Assembly: GCA_046882025.1 (NCBI GenBank)
Contig: JBKSNB010000086.1
Location: 1-46,601 of the forward strand
Direction of reading: 5' to 3'
Origin: Alphaproteobacteria bacterium
Lineage (GTDB): Bacteria; Pseudomonadota; Alphaproteobacteria; Rs-D84
DNA length: 46,601 nucleotides
Position 1 is the stretch's first letter; every line of letters starts with the position of its first letter. Both the position numbers and the translations under genes were made by a program. Positions 2,797 to 46,601 of this stretch are shown here, piece after piece. The notes below the pieces were generated by a model. The model did not search any database. It worked only from the letters and a program-made list of their open reading frames with translations, and had not been told where the DNA came from.

Positions 2797-2803
2797 ACCC
2801 AGT

Positions 2804-9405: not shown

Positions 9406-9437
9406 TATATTTCCTCGCGCTTTCTCTATCAGGCATG

Positions 9438-9466
9438 ATGATAGCCACTTTATAAAACCAACGCAA
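9438..9466 (-). promoter_or_regulatory. sigma70-like promoter candidate for PFOR (TTGCGT-N17-TATCAT on the minus strand)
   Basis: -35 at 9461-9466 and -10 at 9438-9443 on the minus strand, about 30 nt upstream of the ATG at 9405. Confidence 0.3.
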
Positions 9467-9544
9467 GAAATAATAAAACACCACTTGACAAACAAAAATT
9501 TTTGTGTCATATTTGTATCAACAAACAAAAAAAGGACAAAGATT

Positions 9545-19535: not shown

Positions 19536-20395
19536 TTATCGCGCCTTAAATCGAAATTATGTATATAACTAAATCCAATTCCTATGGACGTATTGCTGGC
19601 ATATTTATCTGCACCACGGGCCTTGGCCAAACGGTATTGAAAATATGGTCCCAATGCAAAATTTTTCCATATATTTGTATCTAAACGTATTGTTATATTC
19701 AAATCACGTTCAAAATCAGTGTAAACATACTGTGAATACGAAAAATACTCGCGATAATATCCATCTGTTGAAAACTTGACGCCATCACGAACATTGTATT
19801 CCGCGCGCCAACCCAGTTCTGCAGCGGCCTTGCTGGTCGGACTATCTGTATTGGTAAAATCATATTCATACACACCGACCAGATAAAGATTCTTTAATAT
19901 ATCATGGTCAAACAATGCAACACCTGCATTCGGACGTATAACATTATTTCTGTGCGGATTACCGACAAATTCTGTTTGATATTGTCCACGGAAAATTGGT
20001 CCAAATCTTAAACCGCCAAAATCCCAACATGCATACGACAAATCAGACGAAAACAATATTTTATCTGCACTTTCATCCTTGGTAACAGGTTTATCATATG
20101 GACGTAGTGTCGTTTTACCATATTCCATAAACAAGGAATTATCCCACTTAAACCGATTAAAACCATATTCCAACGCCGTATCAAAAACGCCCTTTAACAA
20201 ATCCTGACTTGTGGCCGTAAACGCAGATATTGGTGATTCCCGATATGCTTGTTCATTCTGCCCTGTAACATTAGTTTTGTTCCAATCGAAACCAATTCTG
20301 CGGATATTCAGATTAAACTTACTTTCGTTCGGCGACGCATCCGCCATTAAAACCGTTGGCATCAAACACATCAAACAAACCAGAATTTTTTTCAT
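19532..20395 (-). CDS. putative outer-membrane beta-barrel protein
   Basis: Start ATG 20395, giving the signal peptide MKKILVCLMCLMPTVLMADA. Aromatic-rich alternating strands (GIGFSYIHNF). Last gene of a 3-gene minus-strand operon. Confidence 0.5.
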   Translation of the reverse strand: MKKILVCLMCLMPTVLMADASPNESKFNLNIRRIGFDWNKTNVTGQNEQAYRESPISAFTATSQDLLKGVFDTALEYGFNRFKWDNSLFMEYGKTTLRPYDKPVTKDESADKILFSSDLSYACWDFGGLRFGPIFRGQYQTEFVGNPHRNNVIRPNAGVALFDHDILKNLYLVGVYEYDFTNTDSPTSKAAAELGWRAEYNVRDGVKFSTDGYYREYFSYSQYVYTDFERDLNITIRLDTNIWKNFALGPYFQYRLAKARGADKYASNTSIGIGFSYIHNFDLRRDN

Positions 20396-20405
20396 AAACA
20401 CACCC

Positions 20406-21017
20406 CTATTTCCAAATGTTAACTGCGGAATCATTCAAAGAATATTTCCACCCATTATCATGCAACGTCGCCATAAATTGTGAACGCTGATGCTTTTGCA
20501 CAAACAATGTCACCTGATTGCCCAAGATTTCATCTATAACAGTGTTAATTTTTTTATTATCAAGAATTTTATTTAATTCAGCCCAATCAGACAATGGATT
20601 TGCCAACTTAACACCCACAACAAAAACATCATCATTTGACGCCGATGTTTTTAACCAATTTTGCACCTCATTCTGCGTCAACCATTGCTGTGCCGCCACC
20701 GAATCAAGTGTCATATAAATGTTTGCAGCATATGTTGTATCTGAAAAACGTTCACCTTCTATTGTGGTTTGTGATATCAATCCCGTCAATTCATCATTTT
20801 TTGCTGCATCAACAACGGTCTTCAACTGATCACGGGCGGCATACTGACCCAATGTATCCATAATTATTTGATGTCGTGCCTCTGCCATAGCGATATTCTT
20901 GGCGGTCACCGCCGTATCGCTGGTAATATTAACAACGGCATTTCCCGACAACACATCCGCCATTGCCGATGGACAAACACACAAACAACAAACAAAAAAT
21001 TTAATAAACCTTAACAT
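20406..21017 (-). CDS. exported hypothetical protein
   Basis: Signal peptide MLRFIKFFVCCLCVCPSAMA. 203 aa and soluble-looking. Abuts the upstream gene (stop at 21018, start at 21017). No family recognised. Confidence 0.55.
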   Translation of the reverse strand: MLRFIKFFVCCLCVCPSAMADVLSGNAVVNITSDTAVTAKNIAMAEARHQIIMDTLGQYAARDQLKTVVDAAKNDELTGLISQTTIEGERFSDTTYAANIYMTLDSVAAQQWLTQNEVQNWLKTSASNDDVFVVGVKLANPLSDWAELNKILDNKKINTVIDEILGNQVTLFVQKHQRSQFMATLHDNGWKYSLNDSAVNIWK

Positions 21018-22583
21018 CTAAAAACGTGCCGCCACACCCAAATGAACACCCAATGATTTATAGAAAGATTTGGTTTCCCCAGAATCCTTTACCGACCATC
21101 CATTGTTTTTTGCGTCATTAATATACAACGCAACCGAATCAGCATCGTATGAATTTCCAGCACTATCGGTAAAACCACCATGCAACATATAATATTCTGC
21201 TTCATTTGGATCCATTCCTGGCAAATTTTTCCACGCAGCCAATTGTGCATCATATACGGCAGTATAGTATGTTGGATTCAAATATGTTGTCGCATCTGCA
21301 GATCCAACGTGATAATAATCATACGTCACACCAATGGATAACGCGATTGAATCTGTGATTGCAGTTGTCCAATTTGCACCTGCGCCCAAATGCAACCCTG
21401 AAAACATAGATGCCTTATCCTCTACACTTTTTGGGTGTTGCCAATCTGGACGATACGGTTGATCGCCGGTCGCATCATACCCCGGCAGTCCCAATTCCAA
21501 ACGTATATTGGCATTATTATTTTTGTTCATTTCATAATCCATATCCAATGCGACATACGGTCCAGACCACACAACATCGTAATCATGCGACGTTCCAGAT
21601 TGCGCATAATAATATGTATTTTCTGTGCTAACATAATTTGCGCCCGGTGACACCAGCACACCTGCAACATCCGCATACCCATCATTATCTACATCCAAAA
21701 GTTTGACGCCACCAACCGCCTGATTCGTAATTGGCTGTCCTTCGCCAGATTGATTAAAGAATATTAACAATGGACCACACTGAACTTCGCCCCCATCTGT
21801 TGTTACACAATTATTACTGACATCCATTGTATCAATTGCCATACCATAATTATCGTTTGTCTTTAATTTGTATTTCAGATACCGATATCCAACTGATGGT
21901 GTCACCCTAAAACCACCCACAGAAAACAAATCCGTTAAACCGACCCCGGCATTAAATCCCAACATATTTCCGCCACTTGTTTTGCCAACAGATAACGCAT
22001 GTCCCATTTGATATTTTTCAAACGCCTGACCCGTAGATGTTGTCCCCTTCCACGCAGATTGAACAAAGCCCCCCAATGAAATATCATCATCAATCATTGA
22101 CGAATCGCCAAACTGAAAACCATACCGAACACCCGCATTAATCTGGAAAGGAACCTTTACATTGCCGAATTTGTATCCACCATCAATTCCCAACACATTC
22201 CAACGAATATTATCATAGTGCAGTTTCGAACCTGCATTTTTCATTTCAAATTCCCAATTAGCAAATTCATGATTTAACCCTGCATCCAAAAAGAAACCAC
22301 TTTTCGATTCGCTAGGTGCCACCTGTTTTTGCGTCTGTTGTGCAACAGGGGCACGTTGTTGGCTGACATTCGTGCCCACAGAATAGCGTGCATTTGTATA
22401 TGATGTATATCCATTTGCATTTGCGTTGTTCGCATTGTTATTACGATAATTAACATAGCCCGCCGCACTGGAATAAGAACGATTATTATTCGTGCTGTTG
22501 TAATACGTTCCCGCTGCACTTGCGACAACCGGCAACAATGAAACAATTAACGACGCACGCAAAATATGTGACAGATAAAACAT
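21018..22583 (-). CDS. putative outer-membrane beta-barrel protein with Asn/Tyr-rich N-terminal tract
   Basis: Start ATG 22583 (AAGGAG SD), giving the signal MFYLSHILRASLIVSLLPVVASAAG. Beta-strand-rich, ending HLGVAARF (terminal Phe, beta-signal-like). Confidence 0.55.
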   Translation of the reverse strand: MFYLSHILRASLIVSLLPVVASAAGTYYNSTNNNRSYSSAAGYVNYRNNNANNANANGYTSYTNARYSVGTNVSQQRAPVAQQTQKQVAPSESKSGFFLDAGLNHEFANWEFEMKNAGSKLHYDNIRWNVLGIDGGYKFGNVKVPFQINAGVRYGFQFGDSSMIDDDISLGGFVQSAWKGTTSTGQAFEKYQMGHALSVGKTSGGNMLGFNAGVGLTDLFSVGGFRVTPSVGYRYLKYKLKTNDNYGMAIDTMDVSNNCVTTDGGEVQCGPLLIFFNQSGEGQPITNQAVGGVKLLDVDNDGYADVAGVLVSPGANYVSTENTYYYAQSGTSHDYDVVWSGPYVALDMDYEMNKNNNANIRLELGLPGYDATGDQPYRPDWQHPKSVEDKASMFSGLHLGAGANWTTAITDSIALSIGVTYDYYHVGSADATTYLNPTYYTAVYDAQLAAWKNLPGMDPNEAEYYMLHGGFTDSAGNSYDADSVALYINDAKNNGWSVKDSGETKSFYKSLGVHLGVAARF

Positions 22584-22667
22584 CAAAAAACTCCTTACCT
22601 TAAAATATCTTATCACAAAACAGTTGCAAAAAAAACACTTTATTGCAAGAATAAACAATCAGTTGAC

Positions 22668-22752
22668 GCAGTCGTGGCGGAATTGGTATACGCGCAGCAC
22701 TAAGGATGCTGTGGGGAAACCCTTGGGGGTTCAAGTCCCCCCGGCTGCACCA
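22668..22752 (+). tRNA. tRNA-Leu, anticodon AAG (A34), class II with long variable arm, CCA encoded
   Basis: Acceptor GCAGTCG/CGGCTGC. D arm GCG-GAATTGGTATA-CGC. Anticodon stem CAGCA/TGCTG with loop CTAAGGA. 13-nt variable arm. T arm GGGGG-TTCAAGT-CCCCC. Position by position it matches the layout of E. coli tRNA-Leu. Confidence 0.9.
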
Positions 22753-22826: not shown

Positions 22827-25412
22827 ATGAAAGGACTTAGGTACATTTTGGCTGTATGCCTTATCCCACTTGTATGTTGGGACACATGGGCGGCTGATGG
22901 TGCGGCTGTTTCGCGCGCCACTGTTCGTCGTGAAACAGCATCATCACGTGGATCTGTGGGTACAACCACGCGTTCAACCGCACCAACCAAGGTCACTATT
23001 CGTGCACGCACAACCACCACACCACGCACAACATCACAACGCCAAACAAATTCGACAGTGCGAACAAATGCGCGGGCTGCGACCACACAATCGAACCCAC
23101 GAACAACGACTGCGCGTGCAGCATTAAATTCTGACGCAGTAAACAATGTTTTGTCCCGCAACTATTCCAACTGCAAAAACGTATTTAACGAATGCATGGA
23201 TGAATTCTGCGCGAACAAGGATAGTCAATTAAAACGCTGTGCATGTTCTGCCCGAATTCATGATTTTGATTCAACCAAGAAACAACTTAATGCCGCCGAA
23301 GATAAATTATTAGATTTCAGCCAACGTTTATTGACCGTAAACCTGGACAAGGAAGACGCCCTGGCAATAAATACCGCCACCGAAGGTGAATTGGCATTCT
23401 ATAACACCACAGACACATCCCAATCAAAACGTGCATTGGATGCGATTGCAAAAAAATTGAACACATCTTTCAAGGGGTCTAATTTTAATACAAATGTGTC
23501 AAACCTGACATGGTCATTGAACGCGGACAGTGCATTTGATTCTGTTAATTCCATGGCGGGCGCATCGACCACAACCAAGAATGGAACGGCACTATATTCT
23601 GCGGCATTGCCGATATGTCGGGAAATGGCACGCGAAGTATGTTCTGAATATGAATTAACCATTGCCGAAAACGGCTATCAAATGTTAATTGCCCAGGATT
23701 GCAACACCGTTGAAAAAACGTATAAGACCCAGGTTGACCAAACCCGCGATAAAATCTTAGAAAGCAGCGCCCTGTTGGATATGTCACGTTTGGATATTTA
23801 TCAACAGCGTAATTCTGATGATATTTTAACGTGCAAGGGTAAAATGTTGGAAATGTTGACCGACAATACGGTTTGCGGTCCAACACTTGATAAATGTTTG
23901 GATAATACGGGGCGTTATATTAATCCAACAACGGGAACGGCATTTTTAACCGTAAATCTGACTGATTTGAATAATTTGATAATCCGTCCGACGGGCAATC
24001 AGACCTGGGCATCATTGAACCCCAGTTTTATATCATTTCTGAATTCGAAACGCAAATATATAGAAACGGCATCTGAACATTGCCAGGATATCGCCGACAA
24101 CGTATGGACCGCATTTGTCGAAGATGCATTGGCACAGATTAAATTGGCCCAGGCGGCAAAATTGGAAACCATACGCCAGGGTTGCACAACCCTGTCGTCA
24201 CAGTGCCTGACAGAATCCATCAAATCGATTCAGGATTTCGATTCACGTGCTCTGTCTATATTTGGTGTAAATGCGAATAAAACTGCGAATGGAATGTGCA
24301 GCGACATAATCAAATCATGCGAATTGGTTTTAGGCGACGATGATTCTAAATTATGGTCTACGGGTATGACCGATATTGCGACAATGGAAACATACGAAAC
24401 GATTATGTCCACCTGTCGCGAAGTCGGACGCAGTTGTATCATACGTTCGTGTTCATCAATATCTGGAAACTTTGGTTTATGCGAAAGTACCACTTATTCT
24501 GTAAACCGTGCATCAATATTAAATCGTTTGGCATGTTGGGACGAAGTAAAGGTGTGTGTTGAATCTGCGGGCAAATCATTGAACAACATTATGACAACAA
24601 TGGCGGGTGAAATTGGATTTGATAAGGACAACAACAACTTTTACAAAAAATTATATGGCGACAAAACACCAAACGACGCAATATGTTCTGGTGAATCGGG
24701 CGACTATGCGTGTTACCTGACGGAACGCATTTGGGGCAATTGCGATGACAAACCATCATCAGACGCATCAAACAAAATAATGAAACCAACTGACACCCAA
24801 GAAACAACATTGTTAAGTTGGTTCGCATCCAATACATCTTATTCGTGCAATGTTGCCATTTGTCCAGAAGGCAAAATATTAAAACAAACCAGCGACTCTT
24901 CTTATTACTGTGTAAATGCTGGCGACTATATTTGTGATGTTAAATGTAGCGGTACCAAAAGAATTTGGGTTACATCTGATGTTCAAAACTGTTGCACAAC
25001 TGGCACGGATGCCTATGGTAATTGCTGTTCAAATAAAACAATACTTACACCAGGCCACTCTGACAAATGGTGGGGCAACGAATTTAACCAAAAAATATGC
25101 GTGCCATCAGATAATTATAAATATATTATCAGTTATAATGGCACCACCCTGTTTTGTGGTGGGGATGTTGATGACTCTGATCCAAATAAAATAACATGCA
25201 ACAATTCAATGTTTAAAATTGATACGATTAACAAAGGTAATAAGAATAATGAGAATTGGAACTATGTTTCATTGGGTGATTCATTAAACATAACCCAATC
25301 TTATATTGCAGACACAACCGATAGCGGGACCTGCGCTAGCTCAGTATGCACGTTCAATGGCACATGGGGGGAATGTGAATCCCCACAACACTGGTCAGTG
25401 AATTTCGAATAA
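22827..25412 (+). CDS. giant secreted cysteine-rich protein, CMDxFC-motif family (member 1, 861 aa)
   Basis: Signal peptide MKGLRYILAVCLIPLVCWDTWA. Arg/Thr/Ser-rich tract (aa 25-100). Motif NCKNVFNECMDEFCANKDSQLKRCACS. The rest is a long region with many paired Cys. Closest paralogue is 43522-45801. Confidence 0.8.
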   Translation: MKGLRYILAVCLIPLVCWDTWAADGAAVSRATVRRETASSRGSVGTTTRSTAPTKVTIRARTTTTPRTTSQRQTNSTVRTNARAATTQSNPRTTTARAALNSDAVNNVLSRNYSNCKNVFNECMDEFCANKDSQLKRCACSARIHDFDSTKKQLNAAEDKLLDFSQRLLTVNLDKEDALAINTATEGELAFYNTTDTSQSKRALDAIAKKLNTSFKGSNFNTNVSNLTWSLNADSAFDSVNSMAGASTTTKNGTALYSAALPICREMAREVCSEYELTIAENGYQMLIAQDCNTVEKTYKTQVDQTRDKILESSALLDMSRLDIYQQRNSDDILTCKGKMLEMLTDNTVCGPTLDKCLDNTGRYINPTTGTAFLTVNLTDLNNLIIRPTGNQTWASLNPSFISFLNSKRKYIETASEHCQDIADNVWTAFVEDALAQIKLAQAAKLETIRQGCTTLSSQCLTESIKSIQDFDSRALSIFGVNANKTANGMCSDIIKSCELVLGDDDSKLWSTGMTDIATMETYETIMSTCREVGRSCIIRSCSSISGNFGLCESTTYSVNRASILNRLACWDEVKVCVESAGKSLNNIMTTMAGEIGFDKDNNNFYKKLYGDKTPNDAICSGESGDYACYLTERIWGNCDDKPSSDASNKIMKPTDTQETTLLSWFASNTSYSCNVAICPEGKILKQTSDSSYYCVNAGDYICDVKCSGTKRIWVTSDVQNCCTTGTDAYGNCCSNKTILTPGHSDKWWGNEFNQKICVPSDNYKYIISYNGTTLFCGGDVDDSDPNKITCNNSMFKIDTINKGNKNNENWNYVSLGDSLNITQSYIADTTDSGTCASSVCTFNGTWGECESPQHWSVNFE

Positions 25413-35808: not shown

Positions 35809-36567
35809 ATGACAAATCATTTTCATATGACACTTAATCGCATGGCGTTTTTTACCGCATTTCTGGCGGTTGTGTTGATATTATTCTGGCCCCAATTTAT
35901 ATCCATCGCGGTTTCGAACATCGTATTAAATGGTATTATTATCGGCACTGGATTATTCGGCATAGGATTATGTTTCTATGAAATGTTCAAATTACTGCCG
36001 GAATATCGTTGGTTGTCGGCATACGTGAATGGCGATAAAAATACCCCCCTGCCCCCGATATTACTGCGACCGGTGGCGTTAATGTTGCACGCACAACCAA
36101 AAAAAATATCCACCAACACATTACAGGGATTCCTGGACATGATAATGGTGCGATTTGAAGATTCACGCGAATCGGTTCGCTATATCACAAACACATTAAT
36201 CTTTCTGGGGTTGTTGGGGACATTCTGGGGATTGATTGTGACGGTTGGCGGATTTTCTGAATTGCTGACGTCACTCGATTTTACGAACGAATCGGTATTA
36301 AGCACGATGCAATCTGGCCTATCGCGCCCATTGTCCGGTATGGCAACCGCGTTTACCAGTTCACTGTTGGGTCTGGCATCCAGTTTGTCGGTTGGTTTCC
36401 TGGGGTTGCAGGTTCAATTGGCGCAAAACGCAATATTCCGCGAATTGGAAGATTACCTGTCTGCACACACATCTGTGTCAGACGAAACATCAATTAATCA
36501 AATTCTGCCACAGATAAATTTAATAACCCGCGAACTATCGCGTACTGTGGTAAAACCAACAAAATAA
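35809..36567 (+). CDS. MotA/TolQ/ExbB-family proton-channel protein (252 aa)
   Basis: Start ATG 35809 (GGGGGA SD). TM helices and the channel signature LIFLGLLGTFWGLIVTVGGF...PLSGMATAFTSSLLGLASSL. The ORF-track N-terminal extension overlaps the opposite-strand gene and is rejected. Confidence 0.65.
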   Translation: MTNHFHMTLNRMAFFTAFLAVVLILFWPQFISIAVSNIVLNGIIIGTGLFGIGLCFYEMFKLLPEYRWLSAYVNGDKNTPLPPILLRPVALMLHAQPKKISTNTLQGFLDMIMVRFEDSRESVRYITNTLIFLGLLGTFWGLIVTVGGFSELLTSLDFTNESVLSTMQSGLSRPLSGMATAFTSSLLGLASSLSVGFLGLQVQLAQNAIFRELEDYLSAHTSVSDETSINQILPQINLITRELSRTVVKPTK

Positions 36568-36591: not shown

Positions 36592-37683
36592 ATGTTAAAT
36601 ATTCGTTTTCGCAATCAGACAAATGCATGGCCTGGATTCGTTGATTTATTTTCCAATCTGGTCATAATACTGATTTTCTTGTTAATCGTGTTCGTATTCT
36701 TGTGGACAACGACAAATGTATTTAACAAGGGCGGTGCTGCAAAGCAAATGGCGGACCTGCGCCAGGTAAACGCCGAACAGGCGGCATCGATTCAGCAAAT
36801 GTCTGCGGACAACCAGGCGGCAACATCGCTGTTGGTGCGTGCACGTGACGAATTAATAAACCTGGAATCACACAATGAAAAATTACACTCAGAAATTTCT
36901 GACATGAATTTGAGTATAAATGATTTGGTCACCGCGTATGAGGCTAAGATTGCCGACCTGCAATCCCAGGCAGATGAATTGGCGGCGGAATTGGCTGAAC
37001 GCCAGGCTGCACAAAGTGATGTTGTTGTGCAAAGTGTTGAAATGAACGAACAAATGGAAAAAACAACGGCCGAATTGAACGCGACCAAGGCAGAATTGGA
37101 AAAATTACGTGATGCATTGGCGATTGCCGAAGAACAATCTGCGGCCAAGGATGCAGAATATGCCGCGATGTCAAACCGCCTGAACAAAGCATTGGCAGAC
37201 AAGGTTGCAGAACTGAATGAAATGGCCCAATATCAATCTGATTTTTATAAACAAATCAAAATTGCATTGGGCGATCGCACAACACTGCGCCCCGATGGCG
37301 ACCGCTTTATCGTATCCAGCGATATATTATTCAAATCTGGTTCATATAAATTATCAGACGATGGAAAAAAGCAATTACGCTTAATCGCGAATGTCATCAA
37401 AGATTTTGAAGAAAAAATACCAACCGATATTGATTGGGTAATTCGTGTTGACGGTCACACCGACAAACGTGGTGTTATCCCCGGAACACATGCATATCAG
37501 GACAACATACAATTGTCATTCCTGCGTGCAACGGCGGTTGCAAATGAATTGGAACGAAACGGTGTATCACGTCGCCGGTTATTGCCATCAGGTTTCGGTG
37601 ACACACACCCATTTGCGCTGGGCGACACACCCGCAGATTTGGAACAAAATCGCCGTATAGAATTACAACTAACAAACAAATAA
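36592..37683 (+). CDS. MotB/OmpA-family peptidoglycan-binding protein with long coiled-coil linker (363 aa)
   Basis: MotB-type TM with an Asp (AWPGFVDLFSNLVIILIFLL). Long Ala/Glu/Gln-rich coiled coil (aa ~50-215). OmpA-like domain (ILFKSGSYKLSDDG...VDGHTDKRGV...LSFLRATAVANEL...NRRIELQL). Confidence 0.7.
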   Translation: MLNIRFRNQTNAWPGFVDLFSNLVIILIFLLIVFVFLWTTTNVFNKGGAAKQMADLRQVNAEQAASIQQMSADNQAATSLLVRARDELINLESHNEKLHSEISDMNLSINDLVTAYEAKIADLQSQADELAAELAERQAAQSDVVVQSVEMNEQMEKTTAELNATKAELEKLRDALAIAEEQSAAKDAEYAAMSNRLNKALADKVAELNEMAQYQSDFYKQIKIALGDRTTLRPDGDRFIVSSDILFKSGSYKLSDDGKKQLRLIANVIKDFEEKIPTDIDWVIRVDGHTDKRGVIPGTHAYQDNIQLSFLRATAVANELERNGVSRRRLLPSGFGDTHPFALGDTPADLEQNRRIELQLTNK

Positions 37684-37925: not shown

Positions 37926-38288
37926 TTACATCTTTTTAACCGTATCAACATCTATTTGAATATCGTTACCGTTCTTGTCCAATTCGCCCATAATCATAAC
38001 CATATCATTCGGACCAACCATAACTTCGCCCCACGCATCGTCATCTATATCGACCATTATTTTCGTGCCGTTTGCATCCTGGAAAACATAAATGTCATTG
38101 CCCATATTTTGAACCAAATAACCCTGTGCAACAACACGCGAATCATCGTTCAACATTTTTATGTCTTCAACCATCATTACCGACGGTTTAGTATTTTTAT
38201 ACATATTGTTATTATGCATCATCTGACCCGCAACCGCGACCCCAGACATAAATGCAGCCACAACTGCAACCATTGATATTTTTTTCAT
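37926..38288 (-). CDS. YgiW/YdeI-type bacterial OB-fold (BOF) periplasmic protein
   Basis: Start ATG 38288 (AAGGAG SD). Signal peptide. BOF-like core VVAQGYLVQNMGNDIYVFQDANGTKIMVDIDDDAWGE...VMIMGELDKNGNDIQIDV. Confidence 0.6.
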   Translation of the reverse strand: MKKISMVAVVAAFMSGVAVAGQMMHNNNMYKNTKPSVMMVEDIKMLNDDSRVVAQGYLVQNMGNDIYVFQDANGTKIMVDIDDDAWGEVMVGPNDMVMIMGELDKNGNDIQIDVDTVKKM

Positions 38289-38370
38289 GTGTTTTTCTCC
38301 TTTGGTGTTTGTTTTACACATAAATAATTTTACACGTGGGCTTTATAAAAACCATAGGAACAAAAACAAA

Positions 38371-38396
38371 GAAATCCCCGCATGCGCGGGGAAAAA
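38371..38396 (-). terminator. rho-independent terminator after the two-gene Cys-rich operon
   Basis: CCCCGC-ATGC-GCGGGG hairpin immediately after the stop at 38397, followed by a T-rich run on the minus strand. Confidence 0.5.
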
Positions 38397-40865
38397 TTAC
38401 ATTTGAATATCTTCACAATTCGGTCCATCAGATTCTGTTTCACACGATGTATTCCGACTGTTATGGAACCAAGACGAACTGCCACTAGTTGAGCAAGACT
38501 GTGTCGAAGTCGTTGTACAAACATGACATATTCTGGTATCACGATTAAACACAGATGTAACCTCTTTGGTAACACCGCCCAAACTGCCAGAATTACCACC
38601 TAAATATCCTGAATTACTGTATGAACTGTTTGCCAACTGTGACACACCTGCGCCGCCATTCAATAACTCTATATTTTGCAAACCATTGGCAACATCATAA
38701 CTTATCGCATAAGGTGGGGTCAACGGTGTTGATGGCGCAATACTGGCCACGTTTGAAATATTTCCACTTTCCGCAATTTTTTGACACATATACTGGGCAA
38801 TATCAGCAGATGCATTTTTCGTTGCATTGGCAATTTCTTCGGTCACCCTGGCATTATAATTATCTTGGGCCTGACGCAATGCCGAAACTGCTATCTGCAT
38901 CTTTACCGAATTCAACAGATTCGGGAAACGCGCCATTGTTGCAGCGCCTGCCTTACCCGTTATCTGTGACAAATCACGTCCATTAACACAATATTGGATC
39001 TCTGGGTCCTGTTCAATTAAATCTATGGTTCGATTAATTGTTCCGGCAATATTATTCAATTCTGCGGCTATCGTATTTATGACATCTTCATCTGATGCTT
39101 TATTATTCTGGGCGCGAACATTTTCAATATAATCTGCGACCCCAATTTGTCCCGGCGCCAAAACCCCATCACCATCAACCGTTTTTCCAGACGCGTCACC
39201 AATCTTGATACTGCCGAAAGAAATCATCCCAGTCACACGATACAAATCATCAATCTTTTGTGATCTGATTGATCCTGTACCCATGGTATCATCCGCGGCA
39301 AAACGGTTACAATCGGTGGTACTGCCACATATTTCTGTCATTTTCCTATCAACTATGTTTTGGCAATTATCCAACATAGAATTATCAATATTCAAATATA
39401 ATCCCATCAACATAGAATCCAAATCATCCATTGAAAAGTTTGGATTAGCTTGTTTACATACAACCAGTTTATCAATTGGACAAATATCATGAATATAGTT
39501 GTAATCCATACCTATACATTTTGAAAAGTCAGCCCCACAACGCATATCATCCATAAAGCAATCTTTTACCTCTGTCGTACAGGCATCAACACGCATTGCC
39601 GCCAATTTATCCGTCACGTATGACCATATCTGGGGTTCCATACGTTCACACGGATCTATTTCCACCTTGCAGAATGAACGTGCCATATCGGGGCGTGCCA
39701 AACACGCATCCATTGTTGCAACGCCCTTGCCTGCGATATCATCCTTGCACGCGGTTTGGATACATTTTGATATATCAGATAAACACGATTGACGTTTTTT
39801 TGATTCCGCCTGGGTTTCCGCCAAACGAATCGTTGGGGCCGCTTCACGCAAAAAATCGTTCCAAATCGTATCGCGCACAGCAACACATGAATCTAAAACA
39901 TTTTCACAGATATAACGTTTCGATTCCAATATTTCCATCGTTGATGCTGTAATATCGTACACAGTTGTTGTTTTTACAGTTGTATTTTTTGTTGATTTTG
40001 TTTTCTGTTGCGCATTTTCAGCCGCAATTGTGAACACACAGTTTTCCCAATTTGAACCACACGCATCCGCCGTTTGCATACACTTTTTATATTCAACCAT
40101 ACACTGACCACGATCATATTTATTTGCCGATGCCAAACTGTCACGCAATGCAGAACGCACCGCCGCCTGGGCCGATGACAACGCCTGACGCGCCTCTGCT
40201 TCCTTGGTGGAAATACTGTTTTCCAACGCTTTGCAATCAGACAAAATCTGACGTGAATATATAGATTTTAAGAACGAAATATCCTTAGTGCACGAATCAT
40301 CCATTTGTTCCACGCACAAATTATGTGCCGCTGAAAACAATGCATTACCCGACTTATTTGTTATGTCATCAAATTCATCTTCAAACACATCATCATCGTA
40401 TGACGTATTAAACATCGCCAATAACGATTCGCGTTTTTGTTTTTTGCTATCTTTGCCGTCTGATTGTTTAGAAACATTTCCATTTTCATCATATTGACGT
40501 GTTCCACTAAAAATAATATCTGCATTTGCACCCGCCTGAACACGTTCCACTTCTTCGGTTGCGATACGTTCGGCTTCGTTCAGATTATCTCGAATAGTAT
40601 TCAGACGTGCCTCATACTTTGAATTTTCATCACTGCATGCGCAACTGCCCCCGCTGACATTATCAATAATACAAAACTGATCCATACAACCATAATACGC
40701 ATCATAACATGCCTGGTCATAAATTCCCGTTGGGGTCACACGCGTCCGAACCGTTGTTCCCATCTGAATCGCAGATTGCTTTTTTGCGGTCGCTGTTGCA
40801 GCATTTACATTTCCACCCAGCAAAACAGCAGATATTGCAAATATCGAACAAACAGTTTTTTTCAT
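38397..40865 (-). CDS. giant secreted cysteine-rich protein, CMDxFC-motif family (member 2, 822 aa)
   Basis: Signal peptide MKKTVCSIFAISAVLLGGNVNA. Short basic Thr/Arg tract. Motif ACYDAYYGCMDQFCIIDNVSGGSCACS. Colinear with 40888-43047. C-terminal tail ...ICHVC...NCEDIQM. Confidence 0.8.
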   Translation of the reverse strand: MKKTVCSIFAISAVLLGGNVNAATATAKKQSAIQMGTTVRTRVTPTGIYDQACYDAYYGCMDQFCIIDNVSGGSCACSDENSKYEARLNTIRDNLNEAERIATEEVERVQAGANADIIFSGTRQYDENGNVSKQSDGKDSKKQKRESLLAMFNTSYDDDVFEDEFDDITNKSGNALFSAAHNLCVEQMDDSCTKDISFLKSIYSRQILSDCKALENSISTKEAEARQALSSAQAAVRSALRDSLASANKYDRGQCMVEYKKCMQTADACGSNWENCVFTIAAENAQQKTKSTKNTTVKTTTVYDITASTMEILESKRYICENVLDSCVAVRDTIWNDFLREAAPTIRLAETQAESKKRQSCLSDISKCIQTACKDDIAGKGVATMDACLARPDMARSFCKVEIDPCERMEPQIWSYVTDKLAAMRVDACTTEVKDCFMDDMRCGADFSKCIGMDYNYIHDICPIDKLVVCKQANPNFSMDDLDSMLMGLYLNIDNSMLDNCQNIVDRKMTEICGSTTDCNRFAADDTMGTGSIRSQKIDDLYRVTGMISFGSIKIGDASGKTVDGDGVLAPGQIGVADYIENVRAQNNKASDEDVINTIAAELNNIAGTINRTIDLIEQDPEIQYCVNGRDLSQITGKAGAATMARFPNLLNSVKMQIAVSALRQAQDNYNARVTEEIANATKNASADIAQYMCQKIAESGNISNVASIAPSTPLTPPYAISYDVANGLQNIELLNGGAGVSQLANSSYSNSGYLGGNSGSLGGVTKEVTSVFNRDTRICHVCTTTSTQSCSTSGSSSWFHNSRNTSCETESDGPNCEDIQM

Positions 40866-40887
40866 TTTCTCTCTCTCCTCTGGACCC

Positions 40888-43047
40888 TTACATATTTATA
40901 TCTTCGCAAGATTCTATTTCTTGACAGAATTCTTGTTCCCCACCAGATGCCATACCAACCAATCCGGCACCAACCGCACCAACGACTGCGCCAATTGCTG
41001 TTCCCCAACCCGGGGTTACCATTGTTCCAGCAGACGCACCTGCAGACAATCCACCAGCCGCTGCCTTTAATGCGGACGTTCCTTTTGATTCACCACCAAC
41101 TTCGCAAACCTGTTGCATACGGCATACATGGCAATTACGTAATGACGGTTCAAATGAAACGCTGCGAATATAACTGTAATTCTTGGAATCCTTATTTGGT
41201 TTTTCAACAGCATATGTTGTCAAACAGTTTTTTTCTGCAGCCGCCAAATCTTGATTACGGGACAATTCTGCAATCTTTGATTCCAATGCACGCAAAGCAC
41301 GATTTTCAGCACTAATCTGGGCAATCATCTTTGCACCATTAAACACACTCGCCCCCAGTGATTTTTTCCGACTGCCAACCGGTTGCTGGCTATCCAAACA
41401 TGCGCTGACTGTCACGTCTTGTTCGAACTGCTTAAAGAATTCATCAACCGCCGCACCCGCATTTGCGCGCACCATATCACGCAAAGCCAACGCGTCTTCT
41501 TCTGTTGATGGGACCGTATTCAACGCCGTCACCGTATCGTCATTTGGCAGACACGACATATCCGTTCCACACACAGAATTCAAACGTTCACCAAAATAAT
41601 TCACACAACCCTGCATCATTTGATAATCCATCTGTAACAATGCCGCACTAACAATTACGTCAAACTGTGTTTCCCCCTTACAAGATGGGAACATGCTCTG
41701 CGGACACATTGCAACAATCTGCGACGTAGATTTGCCTACGCATTCAGGCGCAGTAAAATTCGTTCCGCATCTCTGTTGCAAACATGCATCAACATCATTC
41801 TGACAGAACTGAGTCCGCAAATAACCCAATTTACCATTAATAACCGATTGAATTCCTGGTATTTTCTGTTCACATTCTGTAATTATCGGGCAAATCCCAG
41901 CCGCCACATTAACATCCGTCAAACATGCAGAATTTGTCGATGTCGAACAACTTTCTTCCAAACAATTCTGAATTTTTGCCAAACATGTCGCGCGCTGATT
42001 CCTGTCTGCATATTTCGCTGCATCAACCAATATCATTTGCGCTTCGTCCTGCCAATCAGACAAAACATAATTTTTGACCGCCATACATTGATCCAAAACA
42101 TTTTCACATGCATATGCACGACGTTCCAACAAATTTTCATCCAAACAGTTTTCAAAATTCGTTCCACAACCGCCCTTGTCTGCGATACAAGATCTATACG
42201 CCAATAAACATTCACCACGATTATACTTATTCGTCGTATCCAGCATTTCCAAACGTGCCTGACGAACTGCCGCCTCTGCCGTGCGTTTATTTGCCTGGGC
42301 ATTTGCCTTTTGATCCGCCAAATACGCATCATAAGATTTACAATCTGCAATTATCTGACGCGAATACAACAATTCTTCCATTTCTGCACGACCACCACAC
42401 GCATCCAGTTCAGCCGCGCAATATTCAGACGCCATTGCATATAAATTCCCACCAATATCATCATCAGTTGTCAAAGAATCTTCAACCACACTTGAATTTA
42501 GCCAACTGGCAAAATCCACCCCAGACAAAGAACGACTTTTTTTGGCAGCCGCGCTTTCGCCAAACACCAACGACGCCTTTGCACCCAAATTTTCACGTTC
42601 AACACCTTCGGTAAATAACTTATCTGCATCTGATTGTAACGTTTGTATTTCCTGAATTAATGATTTCGCCTGATTTATATTATCACTGCATGCGCAACGA
42701 TACCCCTCAGATTCATCCAGCAAACAAAAATCATCCATGCACGCCCGATATGCATCACGACAATTTTCTGGCTTTGACGGTTCTGGCTGTTCTGGCTGTT
42801 TTGGCTGTTCTGGCTGTTTTGGTTCATCCCCACCCGGTCCAGGAACAACAGGCACAACCGCTTCACTTTCCGCAGTTGGAATATTTTTAACCGTATTCGC
42901 CGTTGATTTTGTTGTCAGCGTCGGCATACGTGACGACATGGTATTCGGACGAACAACACCAACACGCGCCGATCCAGTCCGCACATCCGCCCCAAACACC
43001 ACCCCAGGCACAAACAACAACATTGTCGCAAAATTTAGTAATTTCAT
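40888..43047 (-). CDS. giant secreted cysteine-rich protein, CMDxFC-motif family (member 3, 719 aa)
   Basis: Start ATG 43047 (GTG 43056 rejected). Signal MKLLNFATMLLFVPGVVFG. (K/E)QP repeats. Motif NCRDAYRACMDDFCLLDESEGYRCACS. Gly/Ala zipper near the C-terminus. Tail ...NCHVC...SCEDINM. Confidence 0.8.
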   Translation of the reverse strand: MKLLNFATMLLFVPGVVFGADVRTGSARVGVVRPNTMSSRMPTLTTKSTANTVKNIPTAESEAVVPVVPGPGGDEPKQPEQPKQPEQPEPSKPENCRDAYRACMDDFCLLDESEGYRCACSDNINQAKSLIQEIQTLQSDADKLFTEGVERENLGAKASLVFGESAAAKKSRSLSGVDFASWLNSSVVEDSLTTDDDIGGNLYAMASEYCAAELDACGGRAEMEELLYSRQIIADCKSYDAYLADQKANAQANKRTAEAAVRQARLEMLDTTNKYNRGECLLAYRSCIADKGGCGTNFENCLDENLLERRAYACENVLDQCMAVKNYVLSDWQDEAQMILVDAAKYADRNQRATCLAKIQNCLEESCSTSTNSACLTDVNVAAGICPIITECEQKIPGIQSVINGKLGYLRTQFCQNDVDACLQQRCGTNFTAPECVGKSTSQIVAMCPQSMFPSCKGETQFDVIVSAALLQMDYQMMQGCVNYFGERLNSVCGTDMSCLPNDDTVTALNTVPSTEEDALALRDMVRANAGAAVDEFFKQFEQDVTVSACLDSQQPVGSRKKSLGASVFNGAKMIAQISAENRALRALESKIAELSRNQDLAAAEKNCLTTYAVEKPNKDSKNYSYIRSVSFEPSLRNCHVCRMQQVCEVGGESKGTSALKAAAGGLSAGASAGTMVTPGWGTAIGAVVGAVGAGLVGMASGGEQEFCQEIESCEDINM
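42781..42825 (-). repeat. 9-bp in-frame tandem repeat (5 units) encoding (K/E)QP repeats
   Basis: TTCTGGCTG TTCTGGCTG TTTTGGCTG TTCTGGCTG TTTTGGTTC on the + strand. Encodes EPKQPEQPKQPEQPE in the minus-strand gene. Confidence 0.85.
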
Positions 43048-43183
43048 ATCTCTCACCGTATAGTATATCTCTTATAGAGAGATTGTATCAAATTTTACCC
43101 GACATCGCAAGCACATAAAAAATATTCTTGCTTTTTTTACCCGACAGCAATATTATAAAACCAACAAAATCAAAGGTTATTTT

Positions 43184-43432
43184 ATGGCAAAAGACGACGT
43201 TATTGTTTTCAGTGGTGTTGTTGAGGATAAATTACCCAACACTATGTTTCGTGTCAAATTGGAAAACGGGCATGAAATATTGGCAACTGTCTGCGGCAAA
43301 ATGCGCAAAATGCGTATCTGGGTAAACGTTGGCGAAAAGGTTCGCGTTGAAATGACACCATACGATTTGGACAAGGGTCGCATAACATTTGTTGAACGCG
43401 CACACACACCGACGCAAAACACAGAAAATTAA
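43184..43432 (+). CDS. infA: translation initiation factor IF-1
   Basis: [69 protein letters not shown]... S1-like fold with a short C-terminal extension. Confidence 0.95.
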
Positions 43433-43456
43433 ATCCTGGCAACCCAGGATTTTTTA
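43433..43456 (+). terminator. rho-independent terminator after infA
   Basis: ATCCTGG-CAAC-CCAGGAT hairpin followed by TTTTT. Confidence 0.6.
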
Positions 43457-43478
43457 TTTCATTTATCACAAATATCGC

Positions 43479-43508
43479 TTGATATAAAAAAATCTTTTTT
43501 GCTATCAT
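43479..43508 (+). promoter_or_regulatory. promoter candidate (TTGATA-N18-TATCAT) for the 759-aa Cys-rich gene
   Basis: The -10 lies 13 nt upstream of the ATG at 43522. Start context ATAGGGATGAAAAGGA parallels the one at 22821-22835. Confidence 0.3.
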
Positions 43509-43521
43509 TTATCGCATAGGG

Positions 43522-45801
43522 ATGAAAAGGATTTTTTATTTTGTTGTAATGACGTTTGTGTGCATCTGCGGTTGCGATGCGGCTGTTCGTGTTGCGACAT
43601 CTGGCCCCACCAGACAAACAGTTTCATCCAGACAATCCCCAACCACAAACACACGCACAGTTCGGGCCACAACCCCCAGGGTTGCATCCCGACAAACAAA
43701 CAATGTTTCCAGGGTCGCCACCGCAACCATTCAACGCGTTTCAAATCAAACATCACGTCGGACAACGAATGCACGTTCTGGGACTTCGCGCACCGCCACA
43801 AACATTGCGACCCAAACATTTGATTCTGGATATAACGTATGTCGTGATGCGTATTTTACATGCATGGATCAATTCTGCGCACAACAGAATGATTCCTATC
43901 GCAGATGCGTATGCTCATCCCGGTTAAGCGAAATTCAATCACGCGAACGCTCTTTGTCTGAGGCATCAGATTCCCTGGCAACATTCAAAGATTTGAACAT
44001 CGACATCATCCCCAAAACAAGTGCAGAGGTAAAGGCAATGTTAACCGCATCTGCAGGCGAACATGCGTCAAAAAAAGACACATCTGATGCCAGCAAACAA
44101 TTAAACGGTATCAGTGCAATATTGGCAAAAACAAAATCACAATCTTTGTCAACAAATGGAACTATTGATATTGGCGGCAACATAAATTCTATATGGGCAA
44201 ATACTGATTTAGCATCTGGGGTAAATATTGCAAATTTATCTGGTGAACAATTATACAATGCCGTTAATGCACAGTGTGCCGAATTTGTAAGCGAAAAATG
44301 TCCATCTGCATCCATCAAAAACATGGTTATATCTGCATACGGCATGTACATAGAAAACGATTGTGCATTATTAATATCTGCATTGGACAAAAAACACAAC
44401 CTGGCGAACAGCGAAATTCGTGCGACCGAACACGAAATGGATAATGCACGACTTGAAAATTACAACGCACATAATTCTACATCTATAAATGATTGCCTTG
44501 CAAATGTGCGCGCCGATATAACATCTGATTCTGCGTGCGGTACCGATTATGTGCATTGCTTAGATGTGACGGGACTATATCTGAACAAATTGACCGGCGA
44601 ACCGATATACACCGCAAATTTTTATCAACTAGAAATGCAAATATCACTATCTGATGACATATTAACAAACAAGAACAATCAATTACTGGTGGCTGAATTA
44701 AACGGGAAACGCAAATTTGCAGAAAAATCATTGGAAACTTGTCGTGATTTATCAGATGATGTATGGAATGAATTTATGCGCCAGGCAATTACAGAAATCT
44801 ATCAAACGCAACAATATAAAATTCGCCAGGTAAAAGATGAATGTTTAGACGTGGTTAACACTTGTTACGATGAAAAAACAAATTCGCTGCGTGATTTTAG
44901 TAACATAGACGCAAATTTGCTAATTGGTTCATCCCTGGAATTAGCCGAAGAAATGTGCCAGGAAAAATTGAACACATGTAGTAACCTGTATGGTCAAGGC
45001 GCAGAAGGGATGCGAGAATTATTAACAGCCATGCACGAAATCACCGATCAAAAAATTGCTGCCAGTTGTAAAACAAATCTAGAATCTTATGTAAAAAAGA
45101 TGTGCGCTGTTCCTAGTATCGATACAATTCATTCTTATCCATATGCGTGTCGTGTTTATACACCAGGCGAACAAAGATTTGCCCGAATTGAAGCGTGCAA
45201 CATCCAGACCAAATCGAACCAAACATCCGACGATGAAGACCCAGATTCAGAAGCTTCTGATAATATCGACGGTTGTCCAATTGAATACACTACATGCTTT
45301 GATGGATATTATTTGAAAAATAAAAACTGTTTCATGTGTCCAACCAGATGCGCAACCTGTCAATACAACGACACCAACAATAAAGTTACATGTAATACGT
45401 GTGCCGACAACCAGGAAACAACCGACACAGATTGCAAAGCGGTAACACCAGAATCAACAAACGCATGTCCAGACAACGGAATGTATATTGGCAGTTTGTA
45501 TCAAAAATTGGTCAGATATGCACTGCAGGTTTGTGTTCGCCCATCAGCCACAAATAAAAACACTGTACCAGAAACCATCCTGCAAGACATTAGCACGGTT
45601 ATGCAATCTGTAACCGTTGACATGGGCAAAGAACTGGCCAGAGAATGTGAACGTTTAGATGGCATTTGGATATCTACACCAGATTCATCCAAAAAAACAG
45701 ATAAATTGCAAAAAACATTTTATAACGATACAGATTCTAACAAACAATGGGGATACTGCATAGAAGTAGAAGAACAAAACAATAATCAAACAAACGAATA
45801 A
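43522..45801 (+). CDS. giant secreted cysteine-rich protein, CMDxFC-motif family (member 4, 759 aa)
   Basis: Signal peptide MKRIFYFVVMTFVCICGCDA. Arg/Thr/Ser-rich tract (aa 21-97). Motif VCRDAYFTCMDQFCAQQNDSYRRCVCS. Furin-like CXXC segment near the C-terminus (CFDGYYLKNKNCFMCPTRCATCQ). Confidence 0.8.
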   Translation: MKRIFYFVVMTFVCICGCDAAVRVATSGPTRQTVSSRQSPTTNTRTVRATTPRVASRQTNNVSRVATATIQRVSNQTSRRTTNARSGTSRTATNIATQTFDSGYNVCRDAYFTCMDQFCAQQNDSYRRCVCSSRLSEIQSRERSLSEASDSLATFKDLNIDIIPKTSAEVKAMLTASAGEHASKKDTSDASKQLNGISAILAKTKSQSLSTNGTIDIGGNINSIWANTDLASGVNIANLSGEQLYNAVNAQCAEFVSEKCPSASIKNMVISAYGMYIENDCALLISALDKKHNLANSEIRATEHEMDNARLENYNAHNSTSINDCLANVRADITSDSACGTDYVHCLDVTGLYLNKLTGEPIYTANFYQLEMQISLSDDILTNKNNQLLVAELNGKRKFAEKSLETCRDLSDDVWNEFMRQAITEIYQTQQYKIRQVKDECLDVVNTCYDEKTNSLRDFSNIDANLLIGSSLELAEEMCQEKLNTCSNLYGQGAEGMRELLTAMHEITDQKIAASCKTNLESYVKKMCAVPSIDTIHSYPYACRVYTPGEQRFARIEACNIQTKSNQTSDDEDPDSEASDNIDGCPIEYTTCFDGYYLKNKNCFMCPTRCATCQYNDTNNKVTCNTCADNQETTDTDCKAVTPESTNACPDNGMYIGSLYQKLVRYALQVCVRPSATNKNTVPETILQDISTVMQSVTVDMGKELARECERLDGIWISTPDSSKKTDKLQKTFYNDTDSNKQWGYCIEVEEQNNNQTNE

Positions 45802-45852
45802 AACAAATACAATTGCAACAAGTGTTATTTTTTGATAAAATGTAGGTACATT

Positions 45853-46601
45853 ATGAATATAACAAAAACATCTTTATTGCTTATATGTGGCATGGCATTT
45901 TGTGCACCTGCCCTGTCGGCATCCAGTATCATTGTATTAAACGGGGGCGACTGGTGGAAACGAATCGGTCCGTCTGTATGCCGTATTAACAATCAAACCT
46001 GTTATCCTAAAATGGCGAGCAACGCATACTGTTCATCAATCGGCAACCCAGAATGTTGGGATGCAGACGCAAATTGTTGGGGTAAAAAATACATTTGTGA
46101 AAATGCATTAAAATCTGGTGTCTCAAACAATTTGTTAACCAAAGCAGAAATAGCATCTGCAACATTGATAAGCGGTGATTTTGATATAAATATCGAATCG
46201 GAATCTGAACGTTGTTTTGGTGTTCGTAAAACATATGACAATGGCGCAGCTGCCACCGTAAACGGCAAAAAGGTCAAGGTTTGGTGTAATAATGTTCCAC
46301 TGGAAAGTAATGATATTGAAATCATAAAGACGGGGCAAATTATTTTGACTGGCACACAACCAACATGTGGCACACTGTCCGAAAATGGATTTGCCGCAGT
46401 TCAGAATGGTTCATGCTGGGGTAAAGAATACAGCAAAAATTTCAAGAATAGCGATTACTATATAGATTGTAAATCCGGTCAATTGGAACCGTACCGTATT
46501 ATTGATATCAATGGTGCCCGGGATTATGACAAAAACGCCAATGCAGAATCTGATACATATGAAAAAATAAAAAACAAATTTCAAACCATGTTGAAAACAT
46601 C
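45853..46601 (+). CDS. secreted cysteine-rich hypothetical protein (5' partial view, runs off the window)
   Basis: Absent from the ORF track because no stop is reached. My manual translation from ATG 45853 stays open to 46601. Signal peptide MNITKTSLLLICGMAFCAPALSA, then Cys-rich sequence (CRINNQTCYP...CSSIGNPECWDADANCWGKKYIC). Confidence 0.6.
   Translation, partial: MNITKTSLLLICGMAFCAPALSASSIIVLNGGDWWKRIGPSVCRINNQTCYPKMASNAYCSSIGNPECWDADANCWGKKYICENALKSGVSNNLLTKAEIASATLISGDFDINIESESERCFGVRKTYDNGAAATVNGKKVKVWCNNVPLESNDIEIIKTGQIILTGTQPTCGTLSENGFAAVQNGSCWGKEYSKNFKNSDYYIDCKSGQLEPYRIIDINGARDYDKNANAESDTYEKIKNKFQTMLKT

Follow-up and report, generated by a model that had tools for sequence, protein, structure and literature searches.

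Cysteine-rich exported proteins A to D of a gut alphaproteobacterium: a new protein family and its possible role in the cell envelope

What would a gut bacterium do with a set of large, exported, cysteine-rich proteins that occupy a good part of its DNA? The question is raised by a contig of 46,601 bp (JBKSNB010000086.1 of assembly GCA_046882025.1), hereafter called the window, which was analysed over its complete length and comes from a metagenome-assembled genome (MAG) labelled 'Alphaproteobacteria bacterium', of the Rs-D84 lineage. As calculated from the lengths of the open reading frames (ORFs), exported Cys-rich proteins account for about 29% of these 46.6 kb. A preliminary description, made from the sequence alone, had singled out four paralogous genes, called here A, B, C and D, as coding for 'giant' proteins of the same layout. 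The four ORFs are all present; with 720 to 860 aa, however, their products are large only.

Gene A (38397-40865, minus strand) codes for 822 aa, with a signal peptide (residues 1-22), a short basic tract, a helical Cys core (about residues 53-520), a helical middle part and a C-terminal beta domain, as predicted. Gene B (40888-43047, minus strand; 719 aa), which lies upstream of A in their apparent operon, has the core as in A, a Pro/Glu-rich linker and a C-terminal Gly/Ala-rich hairpin; its most likely start is the ATG at 43047, the GTG at 43056 being also open, but the N-termini of the orthologues fit the ATG. Gene C (43522-45801, plus strand; 759 aa) specifies a signal peptide, an 86-aa disordered Arg/Thr/Ser tail, the core, a Cys-repeat beta-hairpin insert (about residues 585-650) and a variable tail. 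Gene D (22827-25412, plus strand; 861 aa), a C-type paralogue at a second locus, combines a 93-aa Arg/Thr/Ser tail, the core and a long Cys-rich C-terminal part. In a homologue search, C and D were found at 100% identity as ACLRFJ_02660 and ACLRFJ_02575, respectively. A further gene, T (45853-46601, plus strand), begins 51 bp after C and ends at the contig edge; it codes for a small protein, Cys-rich and with a signal peptide as previously described. By BLASTP it is not homologous to A-D; its orthologues have a conserved PWW motif, which reads DWW in the copy of the window.

That A-D form a family had been proposed from a common motif and from colinear strings. The regular expression C.{6}C[ML][DE].FC.{6,12}C.C was run on the six-frame translation of the window, where the form C-x6-C-M-D-x-F-C-x9-C-x-C-S has exactly four matches, at the four places already described and nowhere else: in A (40635-40709, minus strand; CYDAYYGCMDQFCIIDNVSGGSCAC), where all five Cys are invariant in an 86-sequence alignment, in B (42688-42762, minus strand; CRDAYRACMDDFCLLDESEGYRCAC), in C (43840-43914, plus strand; CRDAYFTCMDQFCAQQNDSYRRCVC) and in D (23172-23246, plus strand; CKNVFNECMDEFCANKDSQLKRCAC). 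The strings quoted as colinear are found in A and B, and BLASTP detects the paralogy over a range from 1e-59 to 2e-7. The closest pairs are A-B (29% identity over 490 aa, E 1e-59) and C-D (26% over 557 aa, E 7e-46); across pairs, the E-values are 3e-15 for A-C, 5e-16 for A-D, 1e-13 for B-C and 2e-7 for B-D. As judged from these alignments A-D are a real family of colinear paralogues, their similarity being far beyond chance. Loss of the motif from orthologues would have spoken for a chance resemblance; of 149 diverse representatives, 130 have it, and the alignments of most others begin only downstream of it.

As seen in A, the shared part covers residues 53-520 (39306-40709, minus strand) and includes an internal repeat. 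Each of the four proteins has the 5-Cys N-terminal motif and 14 further invariant Cys, colinear over about 470 residues; these 19 Cys, invariant across the four subfamilies, span residues 53-501 of A in the 86-sequence alignment, which contains both subfamilies, and the invariant columns held in the 86- and the 57-sequence alignments. Many core Cys are arranged as C-x6-C or C-x7-C pairs on predicted helices, with a spacing that is often i/i+7, which places them on one face of the helix. A C-x6-C-x6-C-x6-C module is duplicated within A (residues 255-291 versus 429-460; hhalign probability 92%, E 6e-7). The folded bodies of A-D are acidic, with a pI of 4.6 to 4.75.

The preliminary description could put no family name on these proteins, and database searches did not provide one. 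Against Pfam-A 2025, the best E-values of the window proteins were at least 0.0045, all under the cut-off. No family recurred among 57 members, the most frequent being DUF7631 (six members, best E 6.5e-4; its score in P0241 was 21.9 bits, for a cut-off of 27), and no Pfam domain was found in eight long relatives of 1083-1186 aa. NCBIfam 20.0 returned nothing meaningful, and PHROGs v4 and PADLOC 2.0 gave no matches for A-D. Sequence searches of the PDB produced no phmmer match at E up to 1, and a profile search had a best E of 4.4. No description of proteins of this type was found in the literature on Enterousia and Rs-D84.

Structure prediction, which had been suggested as a check, was run for A and C with AlphaFold2 (AF2). 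The model of A (mean pLDDT 69.7, pTM 0.40) has helices over residues 51-700 and strands over 738-821; that of C has a mean pLDDT of 73.8 and a pTM of 0.46, with values mostly between 80 and 94, about 90, in the core. In both, the shared core is almost wholly helical and built of helices of 35-58 residues. Foldseek comparison with 350,542 PDB chains found no match (best E 0.81 for the model of A, 0.27 for that of C), nor was there one in BFVD for C (best E 0.29), the TM-scores being at most 0.16 in both collections. We conclude that A-D are a new protein family, with no known family under which to file them, and probably also a new fold.

The common body proposed in the preliminary description stands for the first 470 residues or so after the N-terminal tract, but not for what follows: beyond about residue 520, the C-terminal parts of A and B have no detectable homology to that of C (hhalign probability 0.1-0.3%; six mis-assigned A sequences were removed from the C orthologue set for this comparison and for the Cys counts given below). 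A and B have in common a five-Cys C-terminal module ending in C-E-D-[IV]-x-Met at the free C-terminus. In A the end reads CEDIQM-COOH (38400-38417, minus strand), and C-E-D-[IV]-x-M is found in all 14 A orthologues inspected; in B, as seen by orthologue comparison, it reads CEDINM-COOH (40891-40908, minus strand). B also has, between conserved Cys, a Gly/Ala-rich segment that resembles a glycine zipper (about residues 651-699; 40951-41097, minus strand) and whose sequence is conserved in orthologues. It scores 10-19 bits against Gly-zipper_Omp, Gly-zipper_YMGG and Bacteriocin_IIc, for cut-offs of 25-29, and these matches recur in B and in the five orthologues tested (5/5). This segment is a candidate membrane-inserting hairpin. 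It is like the glycine-zipper hairpins of SlyB/Pcp and of the Rickettsia 17-kDa antigen in being a conserved Gly/Ala-rich stretch of about 45 aa of the GxxxG type; it is unlike the members of that clan in that B has no lipobox and that the segment is a loop within the C-terminal module, framed by presumed disulfides, of a protein of 700 aa.

In place of the A/B module, C and D have Cys-dense beta-hairpin repeats followed by tails of variable length. The only Pfam matches of these modules, and of two neighbouring exported proteins, E and F, are below threshold: cEGF (1e-3), TNFR_ELAPOR1 (0.012-0.03), Ephrin_rec_like (0.016) and EGF_MSP1_1 (4e-5). The C-terminal modules of C and D, together with E and F, may be likened to the VSP/HCMP proteins of Giardia and to furin, EGF and TNFR repeats by the gut habitat, by the Cys-dense and length-variable beta-hairpin repeats and by a presumed resistance to proteases; these systems offer no counterpart of the helical core of A-D.

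How widespread is the family? A word-indexed search found 1425 homologues of A (62-86% identity), 811 of C and 905 of D (44-85%), with lengths of 708-1014 aa for C and 690-1117 aa for D, all of them unnamed or 'hypothetical' and labelled Alphaproteobacteria, Proteobacteria or Candidatus Enterousia, save for a single 'bacterium' and a single Muribaculaceae label. When 1.84 billion representatives were searched with a profile, 1006 clusters (at 50% identity) had E <=1e-3 and 573 had E <=1e-30; among the clusters sampled, the few with names were Alphaproteobacteria, Proteobacteria or Rickettsiales MAGs. Among GTDB species genomes, 573 stretches were confirmed, and the synteny figures below refer to the best 80 of these 573. 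Nearly all 80 are labelled Candidatus Enterousia or uncultured (alpha)proteobacterial or Rickettsiales MAGs (one bears the label Bacteroides fragilis), their sources are mostly animal and human guts, and one of the loci is on a single 958,618-bp record labelled 'circ'. So far, members of the family are known from the gut Alphaproteobacteria of the Rs-D84 / Candidatus Enterousia lineage only. The genomes of this lineage are below 1 Mb and provide for no synthesis of amino acids, nucleotides or lipids, no respiration and no standard transporters, and its dependence on partner cells was inferred by the authors of that study (PMC12306168). For a genome of this size the gene investment is heavy, in keeping with the earlier suggestion that the system is important.

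Gene order is conserved as well. The order T-C-infA-B-A-BOF is kept in nearly all of the roughly 80 loci, often with an OmpA-like gene and dsbA next; B and A are adjacent in 80 of 80, and T comes after C in most. The infA gene (IF-1; 43184-43432, plus strand), which the preliminary description had left out of the layout, stands alone between the divergent B and C, a placement kept in about 77 of 80 species. At the second locus, the block DUF3078-x-Pom-D is conserved in GCA_964313715 (L081). Relative to the proteins of the window, orthologues have a median identity of 63% for A, 67% for B, 53% for C and 38% for T, to be compared with 68% for DsbA, 59% for the OmpA-like protein and 87.5% for IF-1; C evolves faster than A and B. 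As judged from this synteny and from the orthologue comparison, each of the four genes represents an ancient orthologous group and is a fixed core gene, so that the word 'diversified' used for them previously is misleading. A phage, plasmid or defence-island origin was rejected on the chromosomal synteny among housekeeping genes. A C-like member about 34% identical to C was also observed between a radical-SAM gene and dnaE in the MAG GCA_009783145 (L082, 8001-10601; L083, 5463-8063), that is, in another chromosomal place, which raises the possibility that paralogue types in the family number more than four.

These data bear on the idea that the proteins, 'toxin-like' being one of the options in the preliminary description, are secreted toxins or effectors acting against host or competitor cells. 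They are large, exported, multi-copy and of unassigned function, and chance-level matches to Bacillus_HBL (2 of 57 members) and Bacteriocin_IIc exist. Toxins are, however, usually patchy and mobile, and here the same four groups of orthologues keep their positions on the chromosome in about 80 species; moreover, neither an immunity-like gene, a secretion-system gene nor a catalytic domain was seen nearby, PADLOC and PHROGs gave no signal, and evolution is slow. We regard a toxin function as most improbable. A and B are conserved like DsbA and the OmpA-like protein, which, together with the synteny, argues for a fixed structural or essential role in the envelope and against a toxin or a fast-evolving antigen.

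The organization of the A/B locus agrees with the operon proposed earlier. The B-A spacer (40866-40887, minus strand) is of 22 bp and contains the Shine-Dalgarno-like GGAGAGAGAG, the median gap being 24.5 bp in 80 species. A consensus scan revealed a single terminator-like hairpin directly after A (38375-38392, minus strand; 7-bp stem with six GC pairs, T-rich tail). By this arrangement, A and B form an operon. Consensus matches to promoters are present upstream of B (43062-43091, minus strand; TTGATA-18-TATACT), where such sites are no commoner in the region than in shuffled sequence, and upstream of C (43479-43508, plus strand; TTGATA-18-TATCAT, with TG). A perfect bidirectional terminator hairpin lies at the end of infA (43431-43452).

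Export was evaluated with a heuristic calling for a positive n-region, an 11-residue hydrophobic stretch of mean Kyte-Doolittle (KD) hydropathy >=1.8 and small residues at -1 and -3. The four window proteins passed it, as had been expected from their cleavable-looking N-termini, and so did most orthologues of A (80/80), B (69/80, the shortfall being due to over-extended start codons in the ORF calls) and C (74/75). There is neither a lipobox consensus nor a twin-arginine motif at the N-termini of A-D, and by this heuristic the proteins are probably exported by a Sec-type signal peptide. A lipoprotein nature of C, for which the CICGC of its signal peptide could have spoken, was rejected since the orthologue consensus, G-x-A-D-A|A-V-R, has no lipobox. 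Anchoring to peptidoglycan through an N-terminal Ala-Asp is known for Brucella outer-membrane proteins; the mature B and D of the window do start with AD, but this start is not conserved among the orthologues, and the candidate was dropped as well.

Following the signal peptide, the basic Arg/Thr/Ser tract that had been attributed to all four proteins is strongly basic in C and D only. The tail of C (residues 21-106, 86 aa; 43582-43839, plus strand) has a pI of 12 with 15% Arg, 23% Thr and no Lys, and that of D (residues 23-115, 93 aa; 22893-23171, plus strand) a pI of 12 with 15% Arg and 24% Thr; both contain about 12% Ser and about 0-1% Lys. The AF2 model points to disorder in the tail of C, with a pLDDT of about 35 and values below 50 over residues 16-98. 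In A the tract is a mildly basic one of 30 aa, and in B it is a short Arg motif followed by the Pro/Glu-rich linker.

What are the cysteines for? They were counted from the motif to the end of the protein in each orthologue of A-D and in the mature part for T. The count is exactly 36 in all 80 species for A and in all 77 orthologues for B. For D the number is even in 93 of 116 sequences, most commonly 38, 40, 42 or 44; for C it is odd in 59 of 68, with a mode of 29 followed by 31, 33, 35, 37 and 39. For T, 52 of the 54 orthologues show 9 Cys, the window copy having 11, and both C and T are odd in 38 of the 40 loci holding both. Invariant even counts in A and B and counts differing mostly by two in C and D argue for disulfide pairs rather than for metal sites: the Cys of A-D would form disulfides, which in C and D would be gained or lost in pairs. 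The odd counts of C and T suggest one unpaired Cys in each, possibly joined in an intermolecular disulfide. As for the pairing itself, the variable Cys columns have mostly one frequency (about 0.15 in 144 sequences, i.e. 140 representatives plus A-D), apparently the mark of one subfamily, which led us to judge the partners unrecoverable by co-occurrence. A presumed maker of the disulfides is encoded in the window: a membrane-anchored thiol:disulfide oxidoreductase of the DsbA type with a CPYC active-site motif (30674-31528, minus strand; Pfam DSBA 3e-19, Thioredoxin_4 1e-19), whose N-terminal extension of about 110 aa has two hydrophobic segments, the second one with a CVC. In many loci the gene lies no more than 10 kb from A, from which we infer its link to the family; no DsbB or VKOR gene is present within the window.

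The same Cys could instead line helical bundles with free thiolates pointing inward, and hold metal or buffer thiol redox as in the copper storage proteins. Csp1 and Csp3, which are four-helix bundles, likewise have many Cys arrayed along helices; the i/i+7 spacing on one face of long predicted helices, the anoxic habitat, favourable to free thiols, and the lack of a clear route for DsbA re-oxidation would all suit such a function. On the other hand, the even invariant numbers in A and B and the differences, mostly of two, in C and D are better accounted for by disulfides, the locus has a linked dsbA gene, and export is of the Sec type with no twin-arginine, not of the Tat type as for the Csp proteins. 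A-D are also some five to seven times larger than these and have no PDB match and no Pfam match, that to the copper storage family included. Cys density is about 10% in copper storage proteins versus about 5% in A-D. All in all, metal storage or thiol buffering seems to us very unlikely.

The reading that we favour, though only tentatively and at a little less than an even chance, is that A-D are disulfide-hardened scaffold or coat proteins of the envelope and a functional analogue of the chlamydial complex. According to it, each protein would be exported by Sec and would then fold outside the cytoplasm into an elongated all-helical core, the helices of which would be stapled by many disulfides formed between the Cys of one face, with the nearby DsbA-type enzyme as their maker. 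A-D would be fixed, stoichiometric blocks of a protease-resistant layer that may be periplasmic, associated with the outer membrane or at the surface; a surface location and a periplasmic or outer-membrane-associated one are equally possible. A and B would act as a pair, in view of their common operon, their 36 invariant Cys each and their similar C-terminal ends, and the glycine-zipper-like hairpin of B would fix this pair to the membrane. The Arg/Thr/Ser tails of C and D (pI 12) could bind anionic polymers of the envelope or of a partner cell, or else neighbouring subunits by way of their acidic bodies (pI about 4.7), and C may be joined to T through the one unpaired Cys of each.

Several points weigh against this proposal. 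There is no homologue of known function, so that every functional step, from Cys pairing to location, assembly and function, is inferred. The low pTM of both models (0.40 and 0.46) makes the packing of the helices uncertain, and the glycine-zipper matches of B, being under the Pfam cut-offs, could reflect composition alone. The parity counts treat orthologues as independent, a condition violated by their kinship. Codon usage, compared with that of ribosomal genes, did not point to strong expression; A-D are mid-range and the pyruvate:ferredoxin oxidoreductase (PFOR) gene is lowest, which makes this measure uninformative. Classical S-layer proteins are usually devoid of Cys. Replacement of the wall by a disulfide network was once argued for chlamydiae. 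Here, PBP1a is encoded in GCA_964313715 (L081), and RodA, MreB and MrdA are present in the lineage (PMC12306168); with peptidoglycan genes available, such a network is not needed as a wall substitute. Lastly, respiratory chains being reported absent, re-oxidation of DsbA in the anoxic gut has no evident route.

Among known systems, the OmcB/OmcA/MOMP complex of chlamydiae is the nearest functional analogue of A-D as far as such comparisons go, membership in it being ruled out. Common to both sides are a Sec signal, a high Cys content (about 4.5-5% in A-D), a basic N-terminal region (in C and D only), a host-dependent bacterium of small genome, the presence of a Pom-family porin gene, here beside D, Pom porins being found in Protochlamydia, and the hardening of the envelope by disulfides, which for A-D is only proposed. 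By contrast, A-D have no relation to OmcB in sequence or fold, show no Pfam match of the OmcB/DUF11 type and are predicted to be all-helical, OmcB being beta-rich. Neither developmental forms nor intermolecular cross-linking are in evidence for them, the only hint of the latter being the odd Cys parity of C and T, and peptidoglycan synthesis genes are present. Another parallel is with HcpA-E of Helicobacter and EnhC of Legionella, exported proteins with Sel1-like repeats (SLR) in which each helical unit is stapled by a disulfide, EnhC being large and periplasmic. They resemble A-D by export and by the repetition of disulfide-stapled helical units and differ from them in that the Sel1 repeat, PF08238, is absent from the 57 members (E up to 0.1), that A-D have C-x6-C spacing and very long helices, and that no solved SLR structure was found by Foldseek.

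The proteins could also be surface adhesins or an apparatus for partner-cell contact, displayed or released, which would bind a host cell, a protist, a bacterium or mucus for the sake of nutrients and which the disulfides would protect against gut proteases. In favour of this, partner dependence has been inferred for the lineage, which is reported to lack standard transporters (PMC12306168). The basic disordered tails and the length-variable C-terminal Cys-repeat modules of C and D would suit a binding function, as would the faster evolution of C relative to A and B (median identity of 53%, and 38% for T) and the eukaryote-type extracellular Cys repeats that E and F show at sub-threshold level. 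Yet A and B are conserved like housekeeping envelope proteins and have no variable region: the conserved part is the core with its invariant Cys, and no exposed variable tip is evident. Pfam detects no adhesin, lectin or autotransporter domain, even in the relatives of 1083-1186 aa, and there is no evident route across the outer membrane. A contact or adhesin function is the main rival to the scaffold reading, though we hold it to be rather unlikely. We are equally doubtful of the scaffold reading in its most complete version, in which A-D would be a previously unseen envelope layer of new fold, with about 18 disulfides in each protein, an A-B pair anchored by the glycine zipper, and a disulfide-linked C-T with Arg-rich tethers, the whole serving possibly as a surface for partner contact too.

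The neighbouring genes provide some context. Directly downstream of A, past its terminator, is a conserved gene for a periplasmic OB-fold protein of the BOF/YgiW type (37926-38321, minus strand; PF04076, 4e-22). Beside D is a porin-like gene of the Pom family (21018-22583, minus strand; PF17251, Protochlamydia outer membrane protein, E 2e-10), a chlamydia-type porin family being unusual in an alphaproteobacterium. The TTG-start ORF 21018-22658 extends too far, almost to a tRNA-Leu gene (anticodon AAG; 22668-22752, plus strand) that separates the Pom-like gene from D; translation probably begins at the Met codon at 22583. The Pom-like gene adjoins a gene for a DUF3078 outer membrane protein (OMP), the block including 19532-20434 and 20406-21017, both on the minus strand. 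The two exported proteins mentioned above, E (25463-27250, plus strand; 595 aa, 52 Cys, 8.7%) and F (32307-33698, plus strand; 463 aa, 52 Cys, 11.2%), are unrelated to A-D and have no PDB sequence match; the sub-threshold Pfam names of their eukaryote-type repeats are Ephrin_rec_like, TNFR_ELAPOR1 and EGF_MSP1_1, and F without its signal peptide has an odd number of Cys. A membrane protein with weak similarity to MotA/ExbB (35815-36567, plus strand) is followed by an OmpA-domain protein (36592-37683, plus strand), the middle part of which looks like a coiled coil as read by eye (with weak Pfam matches to ArlX and HalX). Since the lineage is reported to have no flagella, these two may form an envelope pair of a Tol/Exb-like or another stator type. 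PFOR (5911-9528, minus strand) and LptC/LptB (2768-4011, plus strand) fit an anaerobic diderm with lipopolysaccharide (LPS) transport. The envelope genes of the window thus include those for the Pom-like porin, the DUF3078 OMP, OmpA-family proteins, LptC/LptB, CtpA and an M23 peptidase.

To conclude, A-D are at present a family of unknown function and not a demonstrated new mechanism. Should they turn out to be ordinary periplasmic proteins of low abundance, little would be left of the finding beyond a further domain of unknown function confined to one lineage. Bacteria of the Rs-D84 / Candidatus Enterousia group are widespread in the guts of humans and animals, and their lifestyle and partners are enigmatic (PMC12306168). 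Kept as they are across the species examined (about 80), A-D are likely to be central to the envelope or to partner contact. The family is a clear marker of the lineage and offers concrete targets for finding the cells and their partners, as well as a test case for the formation of dozens of disulfides in one protein by an anaerobe devoid of respiration. If the envelope-layer reading is true, it would amount to an independent invention of a chlamydia-like disulfide armour in an extracellular gut symbiont.

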